The position numbers and the translations under genes were made by a program. Below the pieces are notes generated by a model. It did no database searches. It saw nothing but the letters and a program-made list of their open reading frames with translations, and was not told the origin of the DNA. 64,000 nt of DNA from a virus. Its lineage: Duplodnaviria; Caudoviricetes. The first letter of the stretch is position 1; each line of letters begins with the position of its first letter. The DNA lies in the IMG/VR virus record IMGVR_UViG_3300037453_000856, positions 1,092 through 65,091 of that record; one strand, written 5' to 3'. Below, in pieces: positions 2,769-56,254 of this stretch.

Positions 2769-3748
2769 TGTCTCGCACTTACGTTCCAGATTATATTCCC
2801 GGCAACATCGATCTTGCTGACCGTGGTTATAAGACGGCTGTCAACAACAAAGACGGTTCTGTTTCTTCTAATTACACTCACACCTTTCTTGACGATGATG
2901 GTTATTATACCGTTGCTCCTGGCGTAGTCGAAAACGGCCTTTATGATTATCGCGTTGGCTCTCCTCAAGATTCCAGAGATCGTTTCAACCGAACCGGAGA
3001 GTTCTTTGGTAAGTTCCGTAACCTCTCTGATTCCGAAGATTTTGCTCATCGCAATCATCTTTTATCTTATTTTGACATGAAGGACACTCCCGATGCCCTT
3101 CTTGACGAAAGAGCTCGCCATCGTAAATACATTCACAATCGCGACACCACTTATCCCAAAGGCGATTCTTCTTTCGTCCCTTCTTACGACGATTCTTACC
3201 TCCCTTACACTCATGGCGTCCCTGTCCGCACCAATCTTTACGATGATGAAGATATGTTTTATAAAAGTCATCCCGAGGTTGCCGGCATGTTTACCGACTA
3301 TGCTCATGACATTACGTTCAACCCTTACGGCGTTGCTCGCGACGACGTGCGCAAGCGCGGTCTTGCCGAGCTCGAGGCTTTCCGCGGCTTCGCTGATCAG
3401 TATGTTTTCGACCATCCCGAAGTTCTTGGCAACGCTCTTTCTTATATGTCTCCCGAGGCTCGTGAGCTTTACCAGCATTATTCCCCTTATCCCGTTGATC
3501 AGCTCATGACTCGTCTCTCTCGCCATCATGTTGGCGACGATCCCTATGTTCCTCTTTCTTCTGACGAACTTTCTCTTTACGACTCCGTCTCCGATTATAT
3601 GTCTAACAACGAGTTCGAGCCTCGCAAACTTCACTGGGTTGATGCGCGCGGCGAATCTCCTTGGACCCCCGCTGACCGTGCCTATCATCGTAACGCCTTC
3701 GATTCCGCTTTAAACAAAGTCCTTTCATCCCGCTCCCTTTCCGAATAA
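2768..3748 (+). CDS. Probable internal virion protein with two conserved phage domains of unknown function
   Basis: NKDGSVS...TGEFFGKF...AHRNH and HPEVAGM...ITFNPY...ELEAFR segments resemble modules I recall from podovirus ejected proteins. Confidence 0.55.
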   Translation: MSRTYVPDYIPGNIDLADRGYKTAVNNKDGSVSSNYTHTFLDDDGYYTVAPGVVENGLYDYRVGSPQDSRDRFNRTGEFFGKFRNLSDSEDFAHRNHLLSYFDMKDTPDALLDERARHRKYIHNRDTTYPKGDSSFVPSYDDSYLPYTHGVPVRTNLYDDEDMFYKSHPEVAGMFTDYAHDITFNPYGVARDDVRKRGLAELEAFRGFADQYVFDHPEVLGNALSYMSPEARELYQHYSPYPVDQLMTRLSRHHVGDDPYVPLSSDELSLYDSVSDYMSNNEFEPRKLHWVDARGESPWTPADRAYHRNAFDSALNKVLSSRSLSE

Positions 3749-4419: not shown

Positions 4420-5144
4420 TTATGAAGCTCTTTAAATCAAAAAAACCCGTGCCTAAACCTCGCCTCTCTTCTAAGGCTTCTTCCAAGGTTTCTTCTAAGA
4501 CCCCGTCCCTCTCTCCCCGTTCTTCTCTTTCCGAACGCGTTCTTCGCTCTGCCCCTCTCGATACTCTCCCTCTTCCTCCTCCCCCCTCGCGTACTATCGA
4601 GTACGATCCGCGCGCGCAGCTTCCCAACACAATCGACAGTGATCTTGAGTGGGTCGCTGGTATGAGCGGTTGGGGTCACCCCGATCTCTATCCCGAGAAC
4701 CTTCCTGGCAACTTTATTATTCGCGCGCTCAATGAGGTTAACGGCATTAACTGGGGCGCAAACCCCAATTTCGTTAACAGCCTCGGCGAAAGTTCCGGCG
4801 GCAACCTTTTGGGCAACCACGGCGGCTATCAAGTCCGTTTTCCTCAGTCTCCCGAAAAAATTGGCCGCGTTGGTTTTGACGATCCTTCTTATTACATGTT
4901 CCCTCCTAAAGAGCTTCGTGGCCGTACTGTTTATACTGAAGATATGCCTTGGGATCTTCCTGGCAAAATCACCTCTCTTGCTCCCTTGCAATTTATCGAT
5001 CTTCTTCGTAAGTACACCGGCTTTGACCCTTCTTCTAAGGCCGAACCCGGCAAATCTAACTATGATCCTGAGCTTGATTATTGGCCTCACTCTCGTCTTC
5101 GTAAGTCTCTTTCTCCTACATCTGATGCCGATATCGAGAACTAA
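4416..5144 (+). CDS. Hypothetical protein, basic Ser/Pro-rich N-terminus
   Basis: Coupled to upstream gene; late codon bias. Confidence 0.7.
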   Translation: MIMKLFKSKKPVPKPRLSSKASSKVSSKTPSLSPRSSLSERVLRSAPLDTLPLPPPPSRTIEYDPRAQLPNTIDSDLEWVAGMSGWGHPDLYPENLPGNFIIRALNEVNGINWGANPNFVNSLGESSGGNLLGNHGGYQVRFPQSPEKIGRVGFDDPSYYMFPPKELRGRTVYTEDMPWDLPGKITSLAPLQFIDLLRKYTGFDPSSKAEPGKSNYDPELDYWPHSRLRKSLSPTSDADIEN

Positions 5145-28074: not shown

Positions 28075-31000
28075 TGTCGTCTCTTTATCCCTATCCTTTT
28101 GCTGGGCTCGACCACGAGACCTCTCTCAAGCCTGTTAGCGACAAGGACAGGGAAGAGACCGCTAAGTTTCTTAAGGATGACGTTTGGCCTGTCGTAAAGC
28201 CCGTTTTGCACGGCGGCAAGGTTGCTCTTGACTGGCTTTTATATCCTGCTCAGGTTTTGTGGAATCCCGTTGCTCTTGGCTCTCGCGAGTTTAACCGCCG
28301 CTACCTTTATCCTCTTACCGAATCTGCCGGCTATATTCCTCAAGACATTGAGGATTATTTCTCTTATCGCAACGCCCTTCGTACTGGTGCTTCCAAAGAA
28401 GAAGCTTCCGAGCTTCTTTCTGACGTAAAAAAGCGGCATCTTGACGCTCTTTCGCAGGTCGTTTTCCCTTATGTTGAAGGCCTCAATGATGAAAACGAGC
28501 CTTTTGGTCGTCGCCTTTGGAACCATCTTCAGTTCCCCGGCACCGATAAGGCTGGTAACTTTTCTACGAAAGGTGCTCTTACTGAATTTTTCGCTCCCGG
28601 GCACTTTATTGGCAGCGTTCCTAGCGGCATTGAGGTTGCCCGCCATTTTAACAAGCAGCTCGGTTTGAAAGGCGCTGGCGCCGTTCCCTCCTATGTTTTG
28701 TTTCCCGGGCTCGGTTTTGCCTCCGATTTTGCCATCAATAAGCGTCTTGGCTTTAAGTTCAACGCCCTTACTCCTTCCGGTCGCTCTTCTGCCGTTCCTC
28801 GCACTGCTTCTTCTTCTTGGTATCGCGAGGCTCGTAACGGCCAGCGTGCTCTTCTTCAGCTTGCTGACATTCCTCTTGTCCGCGGCGAAGGTGTTTACAG
28901 GCGCCTTTCCAACCTTGGCAAAGCCATGGATGCTTATCAGGCGTCCCGCGTTCTTAAGTCCAATTCTCCTTACTTTGAAACTGGCCCTGCTACCAGCAAA
29001 AACCTTTCTCGCGATTTTGCGGAAGGGTTTGTTAATCATTATGACTCCCTTGTTGCTCCCAAGATTGATTCTATTCCTCTTGTTACCAAGGTTATGTCTT
29101 ATCCCTACCGTTACGGCAGGGCTCTTGCTGGTATGCCTCCCGCTCGTGTTCGCGAACTTCGCCGTATTTCTGGCGCTTCTTCTGATCCTCTTGACGCGTC
29201 TTTCCTTTCCAAGCTTTTCGAGAATTCTCCTTCCTCTCCTGTTTATCTTCTCCCCACTTCCGACGCCGCTGACGTTATACGCCACGCTCCCATTCCTGTC
29301 CACGTTTCTGAGGTTCCTTATTTGCAGGAGGTCTATTCTGCCTCCTCCGCTCCTTCTACCGCTGAGAAGGTCGTTAGGTCTCTTTATATGCAGTCTTACA
29401 CTCCTAAGGTTGCCGTAAACAACGCCTTTAACGCCGGCCCTCAGTCTGTCAACTCTGGCGCTCGTCTTTATTCTCCCACTTATTGGAAAGCGTTTTTCAA
29501 TTCTCTGTTTAACCGTCGTTCTTCTAGCAGCAAATCTATTTCCGACGCCCGTCGCGCTTTTGTTCAGAACAGCCTTTCCGATATGGTTTCTTTTGGCCCT
29601 GCTGATAAGGGCTTTGGCTATAAGGTCGTCGGCTATGTTCCTCGCACTCTTGCCAAGACTTCTGGCCGCTTTGAGCGTGCCGCCAGGACTGCTTCTTATG
29701 CCGATCTTGTTGAGCAGGGTTGGTCCCCCAGCCGCGCTTATTCTGAGGTTCTTAATTCTTTTGTCGACTATAGCAGCCCCACCATGTCCTCTCGTGTTGT
29801 TGGCCGTATTTTGCCTTTCCCTCAGTTTTATTTCGGCAATACTGCTAACAACATTCGCATGGCTTATTCAAACCCTGCTATGATGGTTTATCCCCGGTAC
29901 CTTGCGCAGAGCCTTAACAATTCTAATGAGGCTTACGTCAAGGACCCCGTTGCTTATGACAATCAATATGGCTTTAACGCCCACATTCCTGGCACCGACG
30001 ACAAAATCAACTTCCGCTCTTACCTCCCACAGTTAAAGAACTCTCCTGGCGATCTTGTTTATTCTGGCGGTCGAATCACCCTCCCTTACGAAAACTTTTT
30101 AAAGGCCATTTATGGCGCTTTTTCTGACGAGGTCCCTCCAAATGATCCTTTGCGTCTTCATGCTCCTGCTCCTGTTCCTTATATTTCCCTTTCCTCCACC
30201 CCCTCCTCCCCCGAAGATCTGAAGCGAAATCAGACGATCGTTGACTTTATTCGCTCCGTTCCTCTTTCTCGCGATCTTTATGATTTTCTTGTTTCTGGCA
30301 ATTCTGATGCTTATAACTTTACTACCGGCAAGAATCAGCCCGATCTCCCGTCTCGCCTCGCTCGTTACTTTTTCTCCGTTTCAGAAGACACTCCTGCCGT
30401 TTCTTATTATTCTCGATATCGTAATCTTGTTAATAACTTGATCGAGAACAATGCTGGCTTCGAGTTTGATCCTTCTGTCTACCGCTTCCGTGACCTCATT
30501 GAAGAGCTTTACGGTCGCTCCCTTTCTCCTTCCAGTTTTACTGAAAAGCTTGTTGAGCCTGGCGATTCTTATCCCGAGCATGAGTACGTTGATAGCAGTT
30601 ATTCTCCTGAGGATTTTGATAGCTATCTTTATCCTTTGTCTCAGGCGCTTGCCCCTTATAAGAATCGCGCTTATATCGACAATTCTGAACTCGGCGAGCT
30701 TTTGCACGCTCTTATTTTCAACCGCAACGCTCGCGTGTACTTTGACACTTCTAAGATCGATCAGTTTGCGTTTTCTTCTTTAGGCGCTTTTGCTTCCGTT
30801 CTTTCTGATCTTGTTTATAATTCTGACTTGCGCGGCGATGACGCCATCGCCTATCTTTCTCCTTTCCTTTTGACTAATCGTCAGTTGGGCAATACAGACG
30901 TCCCCAAAGACGAACTTGATAAAAAGGTTCTCAAATATTGGCCTATTGATGAAACTGACACTCCCGACTATCGCAATCCTTTTTTGTACGACGGTACTTA

Positions 31001-31637
31001 CGAGGATGTCGTTTCTCACATTTCCGATCTTGCTGCCAAGGGTCTTTACGCTATGGAGCATCCCGTTCGCTATTATAGCCCCGATTCTATTGGCGATTCT
31101 CCTTCTTTTCGCGGCAAAATTGACCATATTTTCTTCTCTCCCGACCATAAGCATGCCGCCGGCTTTGACAACAAGTTCGGCTCCTCTTTTGTTCCTCCTG
31201 CCGAGCGTAATGGCCAGGTCGCTTCTTATGCTCTTTCTCTTTTCCAGATGTATCCCGAGCTTGAGGACGTTACTTTTTCCATTATGCAGCCTAGCGCTTC
31301 CGAAGGTTTTTCCCCCTACTCTTTTAACCGCGCTTCCTATACTTTCCATAACGACCCTGACACTATAAAGGAAATTATTAGTCAGATTCAGCTTTCCGAG
31401 CGTCTCGCTCGTCGCCGCGCCGAACTTGAGGATCAAGGTAGAGACTTAACTCGTACCACTCAGGATATCATCAACGACATCAACGAGCTTATGTTTAACA
31501 ATCCCGGTTTGATGCCCTTCTTTATGCTGCTTGACGGCGACGACTCTTTTTACCGGTCTTCCAACCCTCGTTTTGTTAAGCCCTTGTACGATCCTTACGA
31601 AAATCCCGAGCTGTTTTTCCCTAGCAAAAAGAAATGA
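28074..31637 (+). CDS. Largest ejection-type protein with C-terminal PD-(D/E)XK nuclease domain
   Basis: FVDYS...RILPFPQF polyvalent-protein-like region; ELGELLHAL...FRGKIDHIF...FDNKFG...QVASYA nuclease motifs. Confidence 0.7.
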   Translation: MSSLYPYPFAGLDHETSLKPVSDKDREETAKFLKDDVWPVVKPVLHGGKVALDWLLYPAQVLWNPVALGSREFNRRYLYPLTESAGYIPQDIEDYFSYRNALRTGASKEEASELLSDVKKRHLDALSQVVFPYVEGLNDENEPFGRRLWNHLQFPGTDKAGNFSTKGALTEFFAPGHFIGSVPSGIEVARHFNKQLGLKGAGAVPSYVLFPGLGFASDFAINKRLGFKFNALTPSGRSSAVPRTASSSWYREARNGQRALLQLADIPLVRGEGVYRRLSNLGKAMDAYQASRVLKSNSPYFETGPATSKNLSRDFAEGFVNHYDSLVAPKIDSIPLVTKVMSYPYRYGRALAGMPPARVRELRRISGASSDPLDASFLSKLFENSPSSPVYLLPTSDAADVIRHAPIPVHVSEVPYLQEVYSASSAPSTAEKVVRSLYMQSYTPKVAVNNAFNAGPQSVNSGARLYSPTYWKAFFNSLFNRRSSSSKSISDARRAFVQNSLSDMVSFGPADKGFGYKVVGYVPRTLAKTSGRFERAARTASYADLVEQGWSPSRAYSEVLNSFVDYSSPTMSSRVVGRILPFPQFYFGNTANNIRMAYSNPAMMVYPRYLAQSLNNSNEAYVKDPVAYDNQYGFNAHIPGTDDKINFRSYLPQLKNSPGDLVYSGGRITLPYENFLKAIYGAFSDEVPPNDPLRLHAPAPVPYISLSSTPSSPEDLKRNQTIVDFIRSVPLSRDLYDFLVSGNSDAYNFTTGKNQPDLPSRLARYFFSVSEDTPAVSYYSRYRNLVNNLIENNAGFEFDPSVYRFRDLIEELYGRSLSPSSFTEKLVEPGDSYPEHEYVDSSYSPEDFDSYLYPLSQALAPYKNRAYIDNSELGELLHALIFNRNARVYFDTSKIDQFAFSSLGAFASVLSDLVYNSDLRGDDAIAYLSPFLLTNRQLGNTDVPKDELDKKVLKYWPIDETDTPDYRNPFLYDGTYEDVVSHISDLAAKGLYAMEHPVRYYSPDSIGDSPSFRGKIDHIFFSPDHKHAAGFDNKFGSSFVPPAERNGQVASYALSLFQMYPELEDVTFSIMQPSASEGFSPYSFNRASYTFHNDPDTIKEIISQIQLSERLARRRAELEDQGRDLTRTTQDIINDINELMFNNPGLMPFFMLLDGDDSFYRSSNPRFVKPLYDPYENPELFFPSKKK

Positions 31638-31943
31638 GCAGTTTTATGTCATGCTCGGGACGTCACCTTAAACAAGGAATCTTATGGATACTGGGCGGTT
31701 TATCCTCATGCCCGGGAGCCTGCTTTAGGGGAGAAATGTTAGAGATTATGTCAACATCGATATATCTCTTCTTCGTTGACGGCCTTTTCGCGCCTTGCCC
31801 ATGGCATCACCGACGAAGTCGCGGTTTCAATATTTAGGCAGTTTATCGTCTTGCCCGGGACGTTACTCAAGGAGGAATCTAGATACGAATTATACCTGCT
31901 TCGTTATCGGCCTTTTTAATTCTTGCCTAGGAGTGGACGAAGC
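31636..31943 (-). ncRNA. Tandem array of five covarying H-type pseudoknot units (31636-31663, 31693-31718, 31781-31805, 31837-31862, 31909-31934)
   Basis: Identical 4-4-6-1-4-3 spacing with compensatory changes in the variable helix; strand not certain. Confidence 0.8.
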
Positions 31944-31981
31944 CGCCGTAGATAACAACAACATGAAAGAAAGTGTTCATG

Positions 31982-32014
31982 GCAGACTTTGTTTTAAGAC
32001 CCGTCTGCTGGTCT
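31982..32014 (-). ncRNA. Classical H-type pseudoknot overlapping stop codon of last early gene
   Basis: Minus strand AGACC-A-GCAGAC-G-GGUCU-UAAAACAAA-GUCUGC: 5-bp and 6-bp perfect stems, A-rich loop 3. Confidence 0.75.
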
Positions 32015-32312
32015 AAGCTAATTCTATGTTCGACGGATCTGGCACTTCGTCCGCCACTATGATTTCCTTGTTCTCGATGTCTTTTTTCCACTCTTCGAAC
32101 GCCCCTTGAGCGTCGTCCATCGTGTAGAATTTGGTTCTCGGTTCCCAGCGCATCATCGCGCCTTCAAGGCCTTTTTCGAGAATGAAGCAAGGGTTTACTT
32201 CCTTCTTTTGGTCTTCCGGAACTCTGATTGTGACAACCGTCATCGAGTTGTCGAAAACCCAGATTACGTCTCTTCCGTCATATTTTATAATATCACTCAG
32301 CTGTAGTTTCAT
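32013..32312 (-). CDS. Hypothetical protein, last early gene, directly upstream of pseudoknot array
   Basis: 99 aa ORF with SD (GGAG) upstream. Confidence 0.75.
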   Translation of the reverse strand: MKLQLSDIIKYDGRDVIWVFDNSMTVVTIRVPEDQKKEVNPCFILEKGLEGAMMRWEPRTKFYTMDDAQGAFEEWKKDIENKEIIVADEVPDPSNIELA

Positions 32313-32610
32313 AGACGTTGTACTCCTCGAAGACGCTTTTTATCGTCTCCTTCATTGTCTTTTCGAGCCTTTTTGCCAGCTCTTTTGAGACTTTTTCTTT
32401 GTCCTCGCACTCTGCATTTTCTATTGCGATTTTGAGGTCAATTTTAACGCCCGGTAGCTTTTTCTGTTTTTCTTCTTCCTGTTTCTTTTCTTTCAGGTTT
32501 TCCCTTGCTTCTTTCACGACCTCTTCCAGCAGCCTTTCAGCTTCTTCGATGGCCTTGCAGAAGTCTTTGCGAGCCTGTTCCAGCTCTTCGTTTTCGAACA
32601 TTTGATGCAT
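32293..32610 (-). CDS. Lys/Glu-rich coiled-coil protein
   Basis: 105 aa; AAGGA upstream; first gene after promoter at 32676. Confidence 0.7.
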   Translation of the reverse strand: MHQMFENEELEQARKDFCKAIEEAERLLEEVVKEARENLKEKKQEEEKQKKLPGVKIDLKIAIENAECEDKEKVSKELAKRLEKTMKETIKSVFEEYNVYETTAE

Positions 32611-32675: not shown

Positions 32676-32703
32676 ATTATATCACACTTTCCTTAAAAGT
32701 CAA
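32676..32703 (-). promoter_or_regulatory. Strong sigma70-type promoter
   Basis: TTGACT-16nt-TATAAT with extended -10 TG. Confidence 0.8.
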
Positions 32704-52912: not shown

Positions 52913-52935
52913 CTTGTTCTCCCTTTGTAATATAG

Positions 52936-52961
52936 GGCCTTTTAACGTCTTGCCCAGGACG
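52936..52961 (-). ncRNA. Isolated pseudoknot-family copy (PK8)
   Basis: Plus GGCC-TTTT-AACGTC-T-TGCC-CAG-GACG; 19 nt from stop of ArdC-like gene. Confidence 0.8.
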
Positions 52962-52979
52962 GATAGGTTCGCTGCTTGC

Positions 52980-54705: not shown

Positions 54706-54729
54706 TTTGTGGGTTAATTGGTGATTATG

Positions 54730-54759
54730 CTGGGCAGTTTAGCGACTTGCCCGGGTCGT
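54730..54759 (-). ncRNA. Isolated pseudoknot-family copy (PK6)
   Basis: Plus GGCA-GTTT-AGCGAC-T-TGCC-CGG-GTCGT; compensatory GAC/GTC swap relative to array copies. Confidence 0.8.
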
Positions 54760-54770
54760 CCAGGAGGCAA

Positions 54771-55556: not shown

Positions 55557-55636
55557 TGGTGGAGGTGGCGGGACTCGAACCCGCTTCTCAAGCTTCCCTT
55601 TTCGGGCTTAAGCCTGATCGACGCCTTATCACCCCC
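55557..55636 (-). ncRNA. 80-nt tmRNA tRNA-like domain lacking the mRNA-like domain (mini-tmRNA)
   Basis: GGGGGUG/CACCUCC acceptor with G3-U70, A73, encoded CCA; stemless D-loop AUAAGGCGUCGA; 8-bp P2a UCAGGCUU/AAGCUUGA; GAA linker; T-arm GCGGG-UUCGAGU-CCCGC. Confidence 0.85.
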
Positions 55637-56178: not shown

Positions 56179-56192
56179 AGACTTGTAAAAGC

Positions 56193-56219
56193 GGGCAGTT
56201 TCCCTTCTTACCCAGGAAG
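56193..56219 (-). ncRNA. Isolated pseudoknot-family copy (PK7)
   Basis: Plus GGCA-GTTT-CCCTTC-T-TACC-CAG-GAAG; U-G pair on minus strand; downstream of NADAR stop. Confidence 0.75.
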
Positions 56220-56254
56220 TGGCTGTACTAGCGATGTATGTACTTACTTGTAAG

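Follow-up and report, generated by a model that had tools for sequence, protein, structure and literature searches.

Tandem RNA pseudoknots between the early and late genes of a bovine gut phage belong to a widespread, uncatalogued family and may act as roadblocks at message ends

The analyzed window is a DNA stretch of 64,000 nucleotides (nt) from the IMG/VR virus record IMGVR_UViG_3300037453_000856 (Caudoviricetes). It covers nearly all of this 65,091-bp viral record, which has direct terminal repeats and originates from bovine gut samples. The late genes occupy the plus strand and end at 31637 with the stop codon of a 1187-amino-acid (aa) protein; the early genes occupy the minus strand from approximately 56 kb down to 32013. 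The 376-nt gap in which the two sets converge contains repeats that a repeat finder splits into two sub-families, and Tandem Repeats Finder found no array at this site. Here we describe these repeats as five tandem copies (31631-31940) of a single RNA element, a 27-nt H-type pseudoknot (the knot) encoded on the minus strand. Three solitary copies of the same element are located near 52.9, 54.7, and 56.2 kb.

In the knot, stem 1 varies, loop 1 has 2 nt, stem 2 (GGGC/GCCC) is nearly fixed, and loop 3 is A-rich. Its layout is the first arm of stem 1 (3-4 bp), loop 1 CY, GGGC, loop 2 AW, the return arm of stem 1, loop 3 NUAAACU or NUAAAAG, and GCCC, with the family consensus CGUC, CY, GGGC, AW, GACG, UUAAACU, GCCC. 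A pattern scan of 2.9 million viral contigs, with the conserved letters fixed and stem 1 left free, yielded at least 118 loci on unrelated contigs. Among the viral matches listed, stem 1 forms all four pairs in 73 of 122 and three of the four in another 39; the bacterial matches listed come from many phyla, and 59 of 120 have a perfect 3-bp core of stem 1. In an alignment of 106 sequences, the whole structure is 93.6% paired, compared with 79.3% after shuffling, and double-change cells number 105 against 35 in the shuffled set, nearly all of them in stem 1. The two central pairs of this stem (8/21 and 9/20) occur as GC, CG, AU, and UA, and the covariation signal is lost when the partner is shifted by one to three columns. 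Because stem 2 was fixed by the search pattern, its covariation was tested on copies found by a covariance model. These copies include the variants GAGC/GCUC, GGAC/GUCC, GGCC/GGCC, and AAGC/GCUU; their whole structure is 95.2% paired (76.2% shuffled), with double changes at seven of the eight pairs. Across the family, double changes affect three of the four pairs of stem 2. Thus, both stems covary, which supports both helices of an H-type pseudoknot.

The RNA sense of the element follows from gene orientation, wobble pairs, and geometry. Both flanking open reading frames (ORFs) are co-directional with this sense at 51 loci and both are opposite to it at 2. G.U wobbles are almost confined to it (among the model-found copies, G.U 14 times and U.G seven and eight times; in the 106-sequence alignment, 24 and 15 times), and only in this sense does the structure have the classical geometry with a 2-nt loop 1 and a 7-nt A-rich loop 3. 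Searches of Rfam 15 gave no match at E up to 10 over positions 31000-32600 of the window or over six canonical loci, and the only match over the whole window at the gathering score was a tmRNA-like one, described below. A full-text literature search for the letters of the motif returned primers and vectors only. The knots constitute a very widespread, uncatalogued family that is present in both phages and bacteria. The conserved letters were also considered as a sigma-70 or sigma-54 promoter, a reading rejected because their spacing is wrong for one and the covariation would not be explained by a DNA site. T7-type RNA polymerase (PF00940) was not found in 30 motif-carrying records; as control genomes also gave no signal, this absence argues only weakly against a phage-polymerase promoter.

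For the analysis of the window we used the covariance model R1, built from unrelated phages; two of the eight window copies (unit 1 and the 56.2-kb copy) were outside its seed. The search of the 64 kb identified exactly eight copies, all on the minus strand, which is that of the early genes, with E from 4e-16 to 2e-6 (Table 1). The best plus-strand score was 12.6 bits, and no plus-strand copy was credible. The five array units, numbered here by window coordinate, align to the model without gaps (19.6-42.7 bits, E 2e-6 to 4e-16), and all eight copies form stem 2 between the hairpin loop and the sequence past loop 3. Unit 4 is a canonical pseudoknot with stem 1 CGUC/GACG and loop 3 AUAAACU. Stem 1 in the RNA sense comprises 3, 3, 4, and 4 bp in units 1-4, and it is weak in unit 5, where two contiguous pairs, a C.A mismatch, and one further pair are combined with a 3-bp stem 2. 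Unit 1, which lies antisense across the stop of the 1187-aa late gene, has a doubly changed and still paired stem 2, GAGC/GCUC; the same variant was seen again in L089, L083, L114, and L105. Unit 3 deviates from the family loops (loop 1 AU, loop 3 CGAAAAG). The same 6-bp outer helix, CUUCGU/ACGAAG, encloses unit 3 and unit 5. Overall, the array units are 62-79% alike and follow each other with periods of 57, 87, 56, and 72 nt. The nested minimum free energy (MFE) fold of the whole array is not more stable than that of shuffled sequences (z +0.9), which is unsurprising because pseudoknots are not modeled by a nested fold.

Table 1. Coordinates of the knots and associated features (window positions, unless a record accession is given)
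Feature	Position	Strand	Evidence or remark
Unit 1	core 31636-31662 (model match 31631-31668)	-	19.6 bits, E 2e-6
Unit 2	core 31693-31719 (model match 31688-31725)	-	36.0 bits; stem 1 CUC/GAG
Unit 3	core 31780-31806 (model match 31775-31812); with clamp 31771-31818	-	25.5 bits; stem 1 UGCC/GGCG
Unit 4	core 31836-31862 (model match 31831-31868)	-	42.7 bits, E 4e-16
Unit 5	core 31908-31934 (model match 31903-31940); with clamp 31899-31942	-	27.0 bits, E 2e-9; direct repeats D2 and D4
Unit 5 clamp	CUUCGU 31937-31942 with ACGAAG 31899-31904	-	repeats and sequence
A then UUUCUUUUU (U-tract), immediately past unit 1	31626-31635	-	sequence
Solitary copy	52935-52961 (model match 52930-52967)	-	43.8 bits
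Solitary copy	54732-54758 (model match 54727-54764)	-	41.3 bits
Solitary copy	56193-56219 (model match 56188-56225)	-	23.2 bits
Candidate promoter, sigma-70-type (TTGACT, 16 nt, TG-extended TATAAT)	32676-32703	-	consensus scan, 11/12 matches plus TG
105-aa orphan gene, first of the operon	32293-32610	-	ORF list
99-aa orphan gene, last upstream of the array	32013-32312	-	ORF list
6-bp hairpin GCAGAC...GUCUGC, 4 nt past the stop codon	31982-32008	-	sequence and MFE fold
BLAST match, unannotated stretch	OM869566.1 5802-5831		6-kb faecal virus, microvirus-sized
BLAST match, unannotated stretch	OR602862.1 170434-170463		Moorella phage MTATph1
BLAST match, unannotated stretch	OQ540924.1 37841-37865		Nostoc phage NMeng1

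The solitary copies are intergenic, 12-35 nt after stop codons and with gaps of 22-81 nt to the next starts, and the array follows the last gene of its operon. A zincin-like gene of 264 aa ends 18 nt upstream of the 52935 copy, and this copy is followed after 22 nt by the next ATG; for the 54732 copy, the corresponding distances are 12 nt (from the stop of an AAA_33 kinase-like gene of 246 aa) and 38 nt. The 56193 copy, 35 nt past the stop of a NADAR gene (Pfam NADAR), contains in stem 2 a U.G wobble that is present in the minus sense only. Between two of the solitary knots lies the Rfam match to transfer-messenger RNA (tmRNA; 55557-55636, minus strand, 56.6 bits against a gathering score of 47), which covers model positions 1-374 in just 80 nt and resembles a tRNA-like domain that lacks the tag region. 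A similar truncated tmRNA match, at 37.2 bits and under the gathering score, was observed in another knot-bearing phage (L061).

Much of this description had been anticipated by the original prediction, which was made from the letters of the same stretch. It had proposed five units of one kind and eight copies in all, the minus strand as the RNA strand, an H-type fold with an A-rich loop 3, a stem 1 that differs between units yet stays paired, an outer CUUCGU/ACGAAG helix around two of the units, a sequence behind the last unit (the U-tract directly past unit 1), and no corresponding Rfam family, and all of these points are borne out by our results. Of the pairings that it quoted, the two for units 1 and 5 (ATGTC/GACGT and ATTC/GAGT) need G.T wobbles that exist on the plus strand only and are weaker in RNA.

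The array forms the end of a two-gene operon on the early strand, and a candidate promoter, recognized by its consensus match, may drive this operon. The product of the first gene (105 aa) matched no Pfam or PHROG family, and the gene is also called in two relatives of the phage, the contigs L240 and L241. For the product of the second gene (99 aa), a single near-identical protein cluster was found among 5.8 billion proteins. The loop of the hairpin just past this gene contains a UUAAAAC stretch, and its pairing is retained in L240 via a C-G to U.G change; the hairpin is not a member of the knot family. A scan for canonical terminators found none on either strand at the late/early junction: on the minus strand it detected no G+C-rich hairpin with an immediate U-tract, although a U-tract does follow the knot of unit 1. 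Similarity search with the region 31400-32300 against 50,697 phage records gave no match, and no relatives were found in viral contigs with the 1187-aa protein as a query. GC skew and AT skew are negative across nearly the whole window; consequently, the coding strand of the late genes (plus strand, 1-31637) is rich in pyrimidines and that of the early genes in purines. A strict scan counted 18 Shine-Dalgarno-plus-ATG sites on the plus strand of the window and 119 on the minus strand.

The two relatives come from other samples. Their 99-aa gene is 97% identical to that of the window, the genes flanking the array approximately so, and they have three units where the window has five. The missing 142-nt block consists of unit 4, a spacer, unit 3, and a spacer (position 3448 in both L240 and L241, against 31720-31862 in the window). 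Unit 2 scores 35.3 bits in both relatives, and the C.A mismatch in stem 1 of unit 1 of the window is a C-G pair in L240. The spacer between units 2 and 1 in the relatives is unrelated to its counterpart in the window, whereas the knot cores are retained; the spacer between units 5 and 4 is retained as well. Conservation of cores together with loss or replacement of spacers indicates selection on the knots rather than on the spacers. The difference between five and three units in near-identical phages suggests that the copy number changes by recombination between knots.

A rumen metatranscriptome library contains an 873-nt contig over 31853-32725, a segment that takes in unit 5, both genes, and the promoter region. 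This contig weakly supports presence in RNA. In the RNA run nothing covers 31671-31837, and the contigs break at 31853 (RNA) and at 31858 (DNA). These breaks fit the polymorphism between five and three units and not an RNA end. Both forms of the array probably co-occur, since contigs from two rumen runs break at this junction.

Elsewhere in the family, the usual position of the knot is a gene boundary. Phage copies are mostly located 5-15 nt past the upstream stop and 20-37 nt before the next start; other placements are leaders of first genes, positions after last genes, and, in one case, 5 nt before a tRNA gene. Several copies per phage are common, always in one orientation, and pairs 55-150 nt apart exist. 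In more than 100 other phages, the element is single, stands between ordinary genes, and has no seed-like appendage. No gene family is common to its neighborhoods. A BLAST search with a 38-nt query from a canonical copy found few cultured phages (Table 1), with matches over 66-79% of the query at 90-97% identity. A U-tract (at least five of eight positions) directly follows 26% of the viral and 34% of the bacterial copies, compared with mostly 5-14% at control offsets, which suggests that a subset of the knots double as terminators or Hfq-type sites.

In bacteria, the knot overlaps the stop codon of a conserved micro-ORF of 22-27 aa, always in the same frame. Such loci (L122, L161 at 4604-4681, L164, L132, L199, and approximately 40 others) come from Omnitrophota, Desulfobacterota, Planctomycetota, Clostridia, and other phyla, and among the good bacterial matches listed alpha-, beta-, and gamma-proteobacteria are almost absent. 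The micro-ORF reads M..R[FY]M..[VI]AHCxxGC...S[WR]A and includes the motif A-H-C-x-x-G-C; codon variation in it falls at third positions, and the protein matched no Pfam or NCBIfam family. It adjoins genes for ArsP-type permeases, heavy-metal-associated (HMA) and Metal_resist/PDZ proteins, FAD-oxidoreductases, and Rrf2 proteins. A ribosome terminating at the micro-ORF stop must open the knot, and this may be a clue to the role of the element.

The closest known structures are found in RNA viruses of eukaryotes. The coremin motif (xrRNA-C, where xrRNA stands for exoribonuclease-resistant RNA) is a 20-nt motif found in BNYVV (beet necrotic yellow vein virus), cucumoviruses, and many other such viruses (PMC6546385, PMC10520033), plant and fungal ones included. 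RNAs of the coremin type bring Xrn1 and scanning ribosomes to a stall and also promote -1 frameshifting (PMC10520033, PMC10321173); stalling of the 5'-3' exonuclease and of ribosomes requires no protein partner (PMC6546385, PMC10520033). Like coremin, the knot has a 4-bp hairpin whose commonest sequence is CGUC/GACG, and a loop that begins with a pyrimidine (C here) and ends with A plus a non-C base (A or U here). The knot also shares the conserved spacer after hairpin 1 (GUUAAACUAC in coremin): the seven bases UUAAACU are common to both, the phage family consensus being G-UUAAACU, and units 2 and 4 have AUAAAC(C/U); the last bases of the spacer differ because in the phage element they form stem 2. 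Both elements are very small, often occur in several copies, and reside in untranslated or intergenic regions. The coremin loop, however, has 4-8 nt without an obvious Watson-Crick partner, although an octaloop variant is reported to be resistant (PMC10520033), whereas in the 8-nt phage loop GGGC pairs with GCCC past the spacer. Compared with the coremin loop rule YGAD/YGNNAD, the phage loop C-Y-GGGC-A-W fits at the first and the last two positions and not at the second (G). Coremin also needs a second hairpin directly past the spacer. The phage element has no conserved hairpin there, its GCCC pairing back to the loop instead, and the outer clamp of units 3 and 5 is a different arrangement. 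Finally, the phage and bacterial element resides in DNA genomes, and its hosts are bacteria, which have no Xrn1.

An even closer parallel in topology is Watson-Crick coremin (xrRNA-WCC), which was selected in vitro and is also present in Sanxia picorna-like virus 5 (PMC10321173). In both xrRNA-WCC and the phage element, bases in the loop of hairpin 1 make antiparallel pairs with spacer bases just past UUAAA, forming an H-type pseudoknot, and stem 2 is backed by compensatory changes: the double mutants PK2 and PK6, which restore resistance, in xrRNA-WCC (PMC10321173), and covariation here. The differences are in detail, as stem 2 of xrRNA-WCC has 3 bp and its loop 1 is a single unchangeable G, whereas the phage element has a 4-bp stem 2, loop 1 CY (C in at least 90%), and an extra unpaired AW before the return arm of stem 1. 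Because the second hairpin that coremin requires is absent, we do not file the element as a coremin member; it works like, and is perhaps related to, coremin. Literature searches found no relevant report of coremin-like or exonuclease-resistant RNA in phages or bacteria. In size, short loop 1, and a 6-7-nt A-rich loop 3 expected in the minor groove of stem 1, the knot also resembles the luteovirus-type -1 frameshifting knots (approximately 28 nt in beet western yellows virus, BWYV) and preQ1-I aptamers. Unlike the former, it has no upstream slippery site and follows stop codons rather than lying within overlapping frames; unlike the latter, it has no match to the Rfam PreQ1 model.

The fold, its strand, the family membership, and the usual site at gene boundaries are established by these results. 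From the parallel with coremin and the position at gene boundaries, we tentatively favor an explanation that we regard as quite possible, although short of probable: the knots would be redundant RNA roadblocks, or end-caps, in a 3' untranslated region. The minus-strand segment 31626-31942 would be the 3' untranslated tail of the promoter-driven early operon, with its five tandem knots. Each knot would be a compact, mechanically stable fold at which enzymes that travel along RNA halt or slow down; the candidates are ribosomes, 3' exonucleases, and a 5'-to-3' exoribonuclease, for example RNase J. The knots would thereby fix stable message ends and insulate neighboring genes, as coremin does against Xrn1 and scanning ribosomes. 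The array would serve as a redundant bumper at the place where early and late transcription converge with no ordinary terminator; its last unit, with the U-tract, may help to end the transcript, and the spacers would be filler rather than seeds. Exonuclease-blocking elements had been listed among the alternatives in the original prediction, and this item is nearest to our reading. A similar role, the fixing of stable message ends, is proposed for repetitive extragenic palindromic (REP) hairpins, T7 RNase III sites, and RNase J1 5' stabilizers, which also occur between genes of one operon. These, however, are plain hairpins or double-stranded sites, each lineage-specific, whereas the knot is one conserved pseudoknot across phyla.

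Several observations weigh against the roadblock explanation. The second hairpin required by coremin is replaced by stem 2, and the likeness to coremin may be a convergence on a small knot of the triplex type. Many copies begin only approximately 5 nt past a stop codon, so that the terminating ribosome must open part of the knot, and this could point to a role in translation. The U-tract after a quarter to a third of the copies also fits termination, and stem 1 of unit 5 is poor in the RNA sense. In an extended scenario, which we consider improbable, the five knots would turn the 3' tail into nested exonuclease-resistant noncoding RNAs that accumulate during infection, a phage counterpart of the subgenomic flavivirus RNA (sfRNA) or BNYVV noncoding RNA 3 (ncRNA3). 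These would soak up the RNA-decay machinery or ribosomes of the host, or act as antisense to the end of the converging late message, with the number of units tuned by recombination.

The main rival explanation, unlikely but deserving attention, is transcription termination: the knot, chiefly unit 1 with its U-tract, would act as a hairpin-like intrinsic terminator, and the array would stop antisense transcription from running out of the early operon into the late one. The junction, where no canonical terminator was found on either strand, the run of A and UUUCUUUUU immediately past unit 1, and the excess of U-tracts in the family are all consistent with it. On the other hand, most copies lack a U-tract and are followed after 20-37 nt by the next gene of their own operon, a setting in which termination would do harm; at several bacterial loci an ordinary terminator hairpin is located downstream of the knot, and stem 2 has just 4 bp. 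The short fixed distance from the knot to the next start, at the 5' edge of the ribosome footprint, and loops that are nearly invariant across phyla could instead be explained by a protein- or ribosome-binding operator: a phage protein or a conserved host factor would attach to the invariant loops and control translation of the downstream gene, and the array would titrate this factor. This is improbable, since the five array units have no downstream gene, neighborhoods share no gene family (the adjacent 99-aa protein is an orphan), and the element also occurs 5 nt before a tRNA gene. Conserved loops, together with the short loop 1 and the A-rich loop 3 along stem 1, also recall preQ1-I aptamers and ToxI-type knots, and hence a ligand-sensing, riboswitch-like aptamer or a type III toxin decoy (pseudo-ToxI). 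We consider both very unlikely. No Rfam match at E up to 10 was obtained on the tested stretches, the knot is not linked to a Shine-Dalgarno sequence, and the eight copies stand beside unrelated genes, five of them with no gene to control. ToxI-type repeats and phage pseudo-ToxI are, like the array, tandem small pseudoknot RNAs carried by a phage, but ToxI repeats are identical, have a fixed period (34-45 nt), and adjoin a toxin gene. The array units are non-identical and irregularly spaced (53-87 nt), no toxin gene is nearby, and the same unit is also found single in hundreds of genomes; decoy antitoxins had been one alternative in the original prediction.

The original prediction centered on an array of small RNAs in which the knot would be an unchanging handle and the spacer a variable seed against ribosome-binding regions of host or early messages. 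To assess it, duplex energies of the five spacers in the RNA sense were computed against 84 predicted phage translation-initiation regions, with 60 shuffles of each spacer. Only the spacer between units 5 and 4 (CCUCCUU) beat the shuffles (4/60 and 1/60); it contains GAUUCCUCCUU, a good anti-Shine-Dalgarno sequence, and it is the spacer kept in the relatives. The other four were ordinary. The claim that four of the five spacers resemble ribosome-binding sites on the plus strand is weakly true: a strict Shine-Dalgarno-plus-ATG scan finds a single site there, at 31674, against a background of approximately 0.1 per 379 nt, while the AAGGAGG at approximately 31870 has no start codon. Moreover, both spacers within the 142-nt block are missing from the relatives, in which a third spacer is unrelated to that of the window, and elsewhere the family is single and inside operons. 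A seed array is therefore a poor candidate, and a role of the spacers as seeds has little chance of being correct. Still less credible, and in fact already contradicted, is coding on the plus strand, where the repeat would be a peptide motif G-x-L-x-S-C-P-G in ORFs of 67 aa (31634-31837) and 73 aa (31795-32016), the mini-ORFs of the original prediction. Every unit can indeed be read in one such frame, which shifts from unit 3 to unit 4, and the 67-aa ORF overlaps the upstream stop as ATGA. The 142-nt indel, however, removes part of these ORFs in the relatives, where no gene is called, and as its length is not a multiple of three, it disposes of them. The ORFs have no PHROG match, the 52936 copy is out of frame with the sole long plus-strand ORF there, and across the family the element is intergenic and opposite to the motif frame.

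If the knots do stop nucleases or ribosomes, as the roadblock explanation holds, a defense of RNA ends known only from RNA viruses of eukaryotes would also exist in DNA phages and in many bacterial phyla, and a 27-nt knot would be an old and simple structural solution. It would then allow direct tests of the way in which long phage messages are divided into stable units and neighboring genes are insulated, and it would supply a very small stabilizing part for bacterial synthetic biology. The Moorella phage MTATph1 and the Nostoc phage NMeng1 provide cultured systems in which the element could be tested. The specific contribution of the array described here is that the unit is stackable, with a copy number that differs between near-identical phages.

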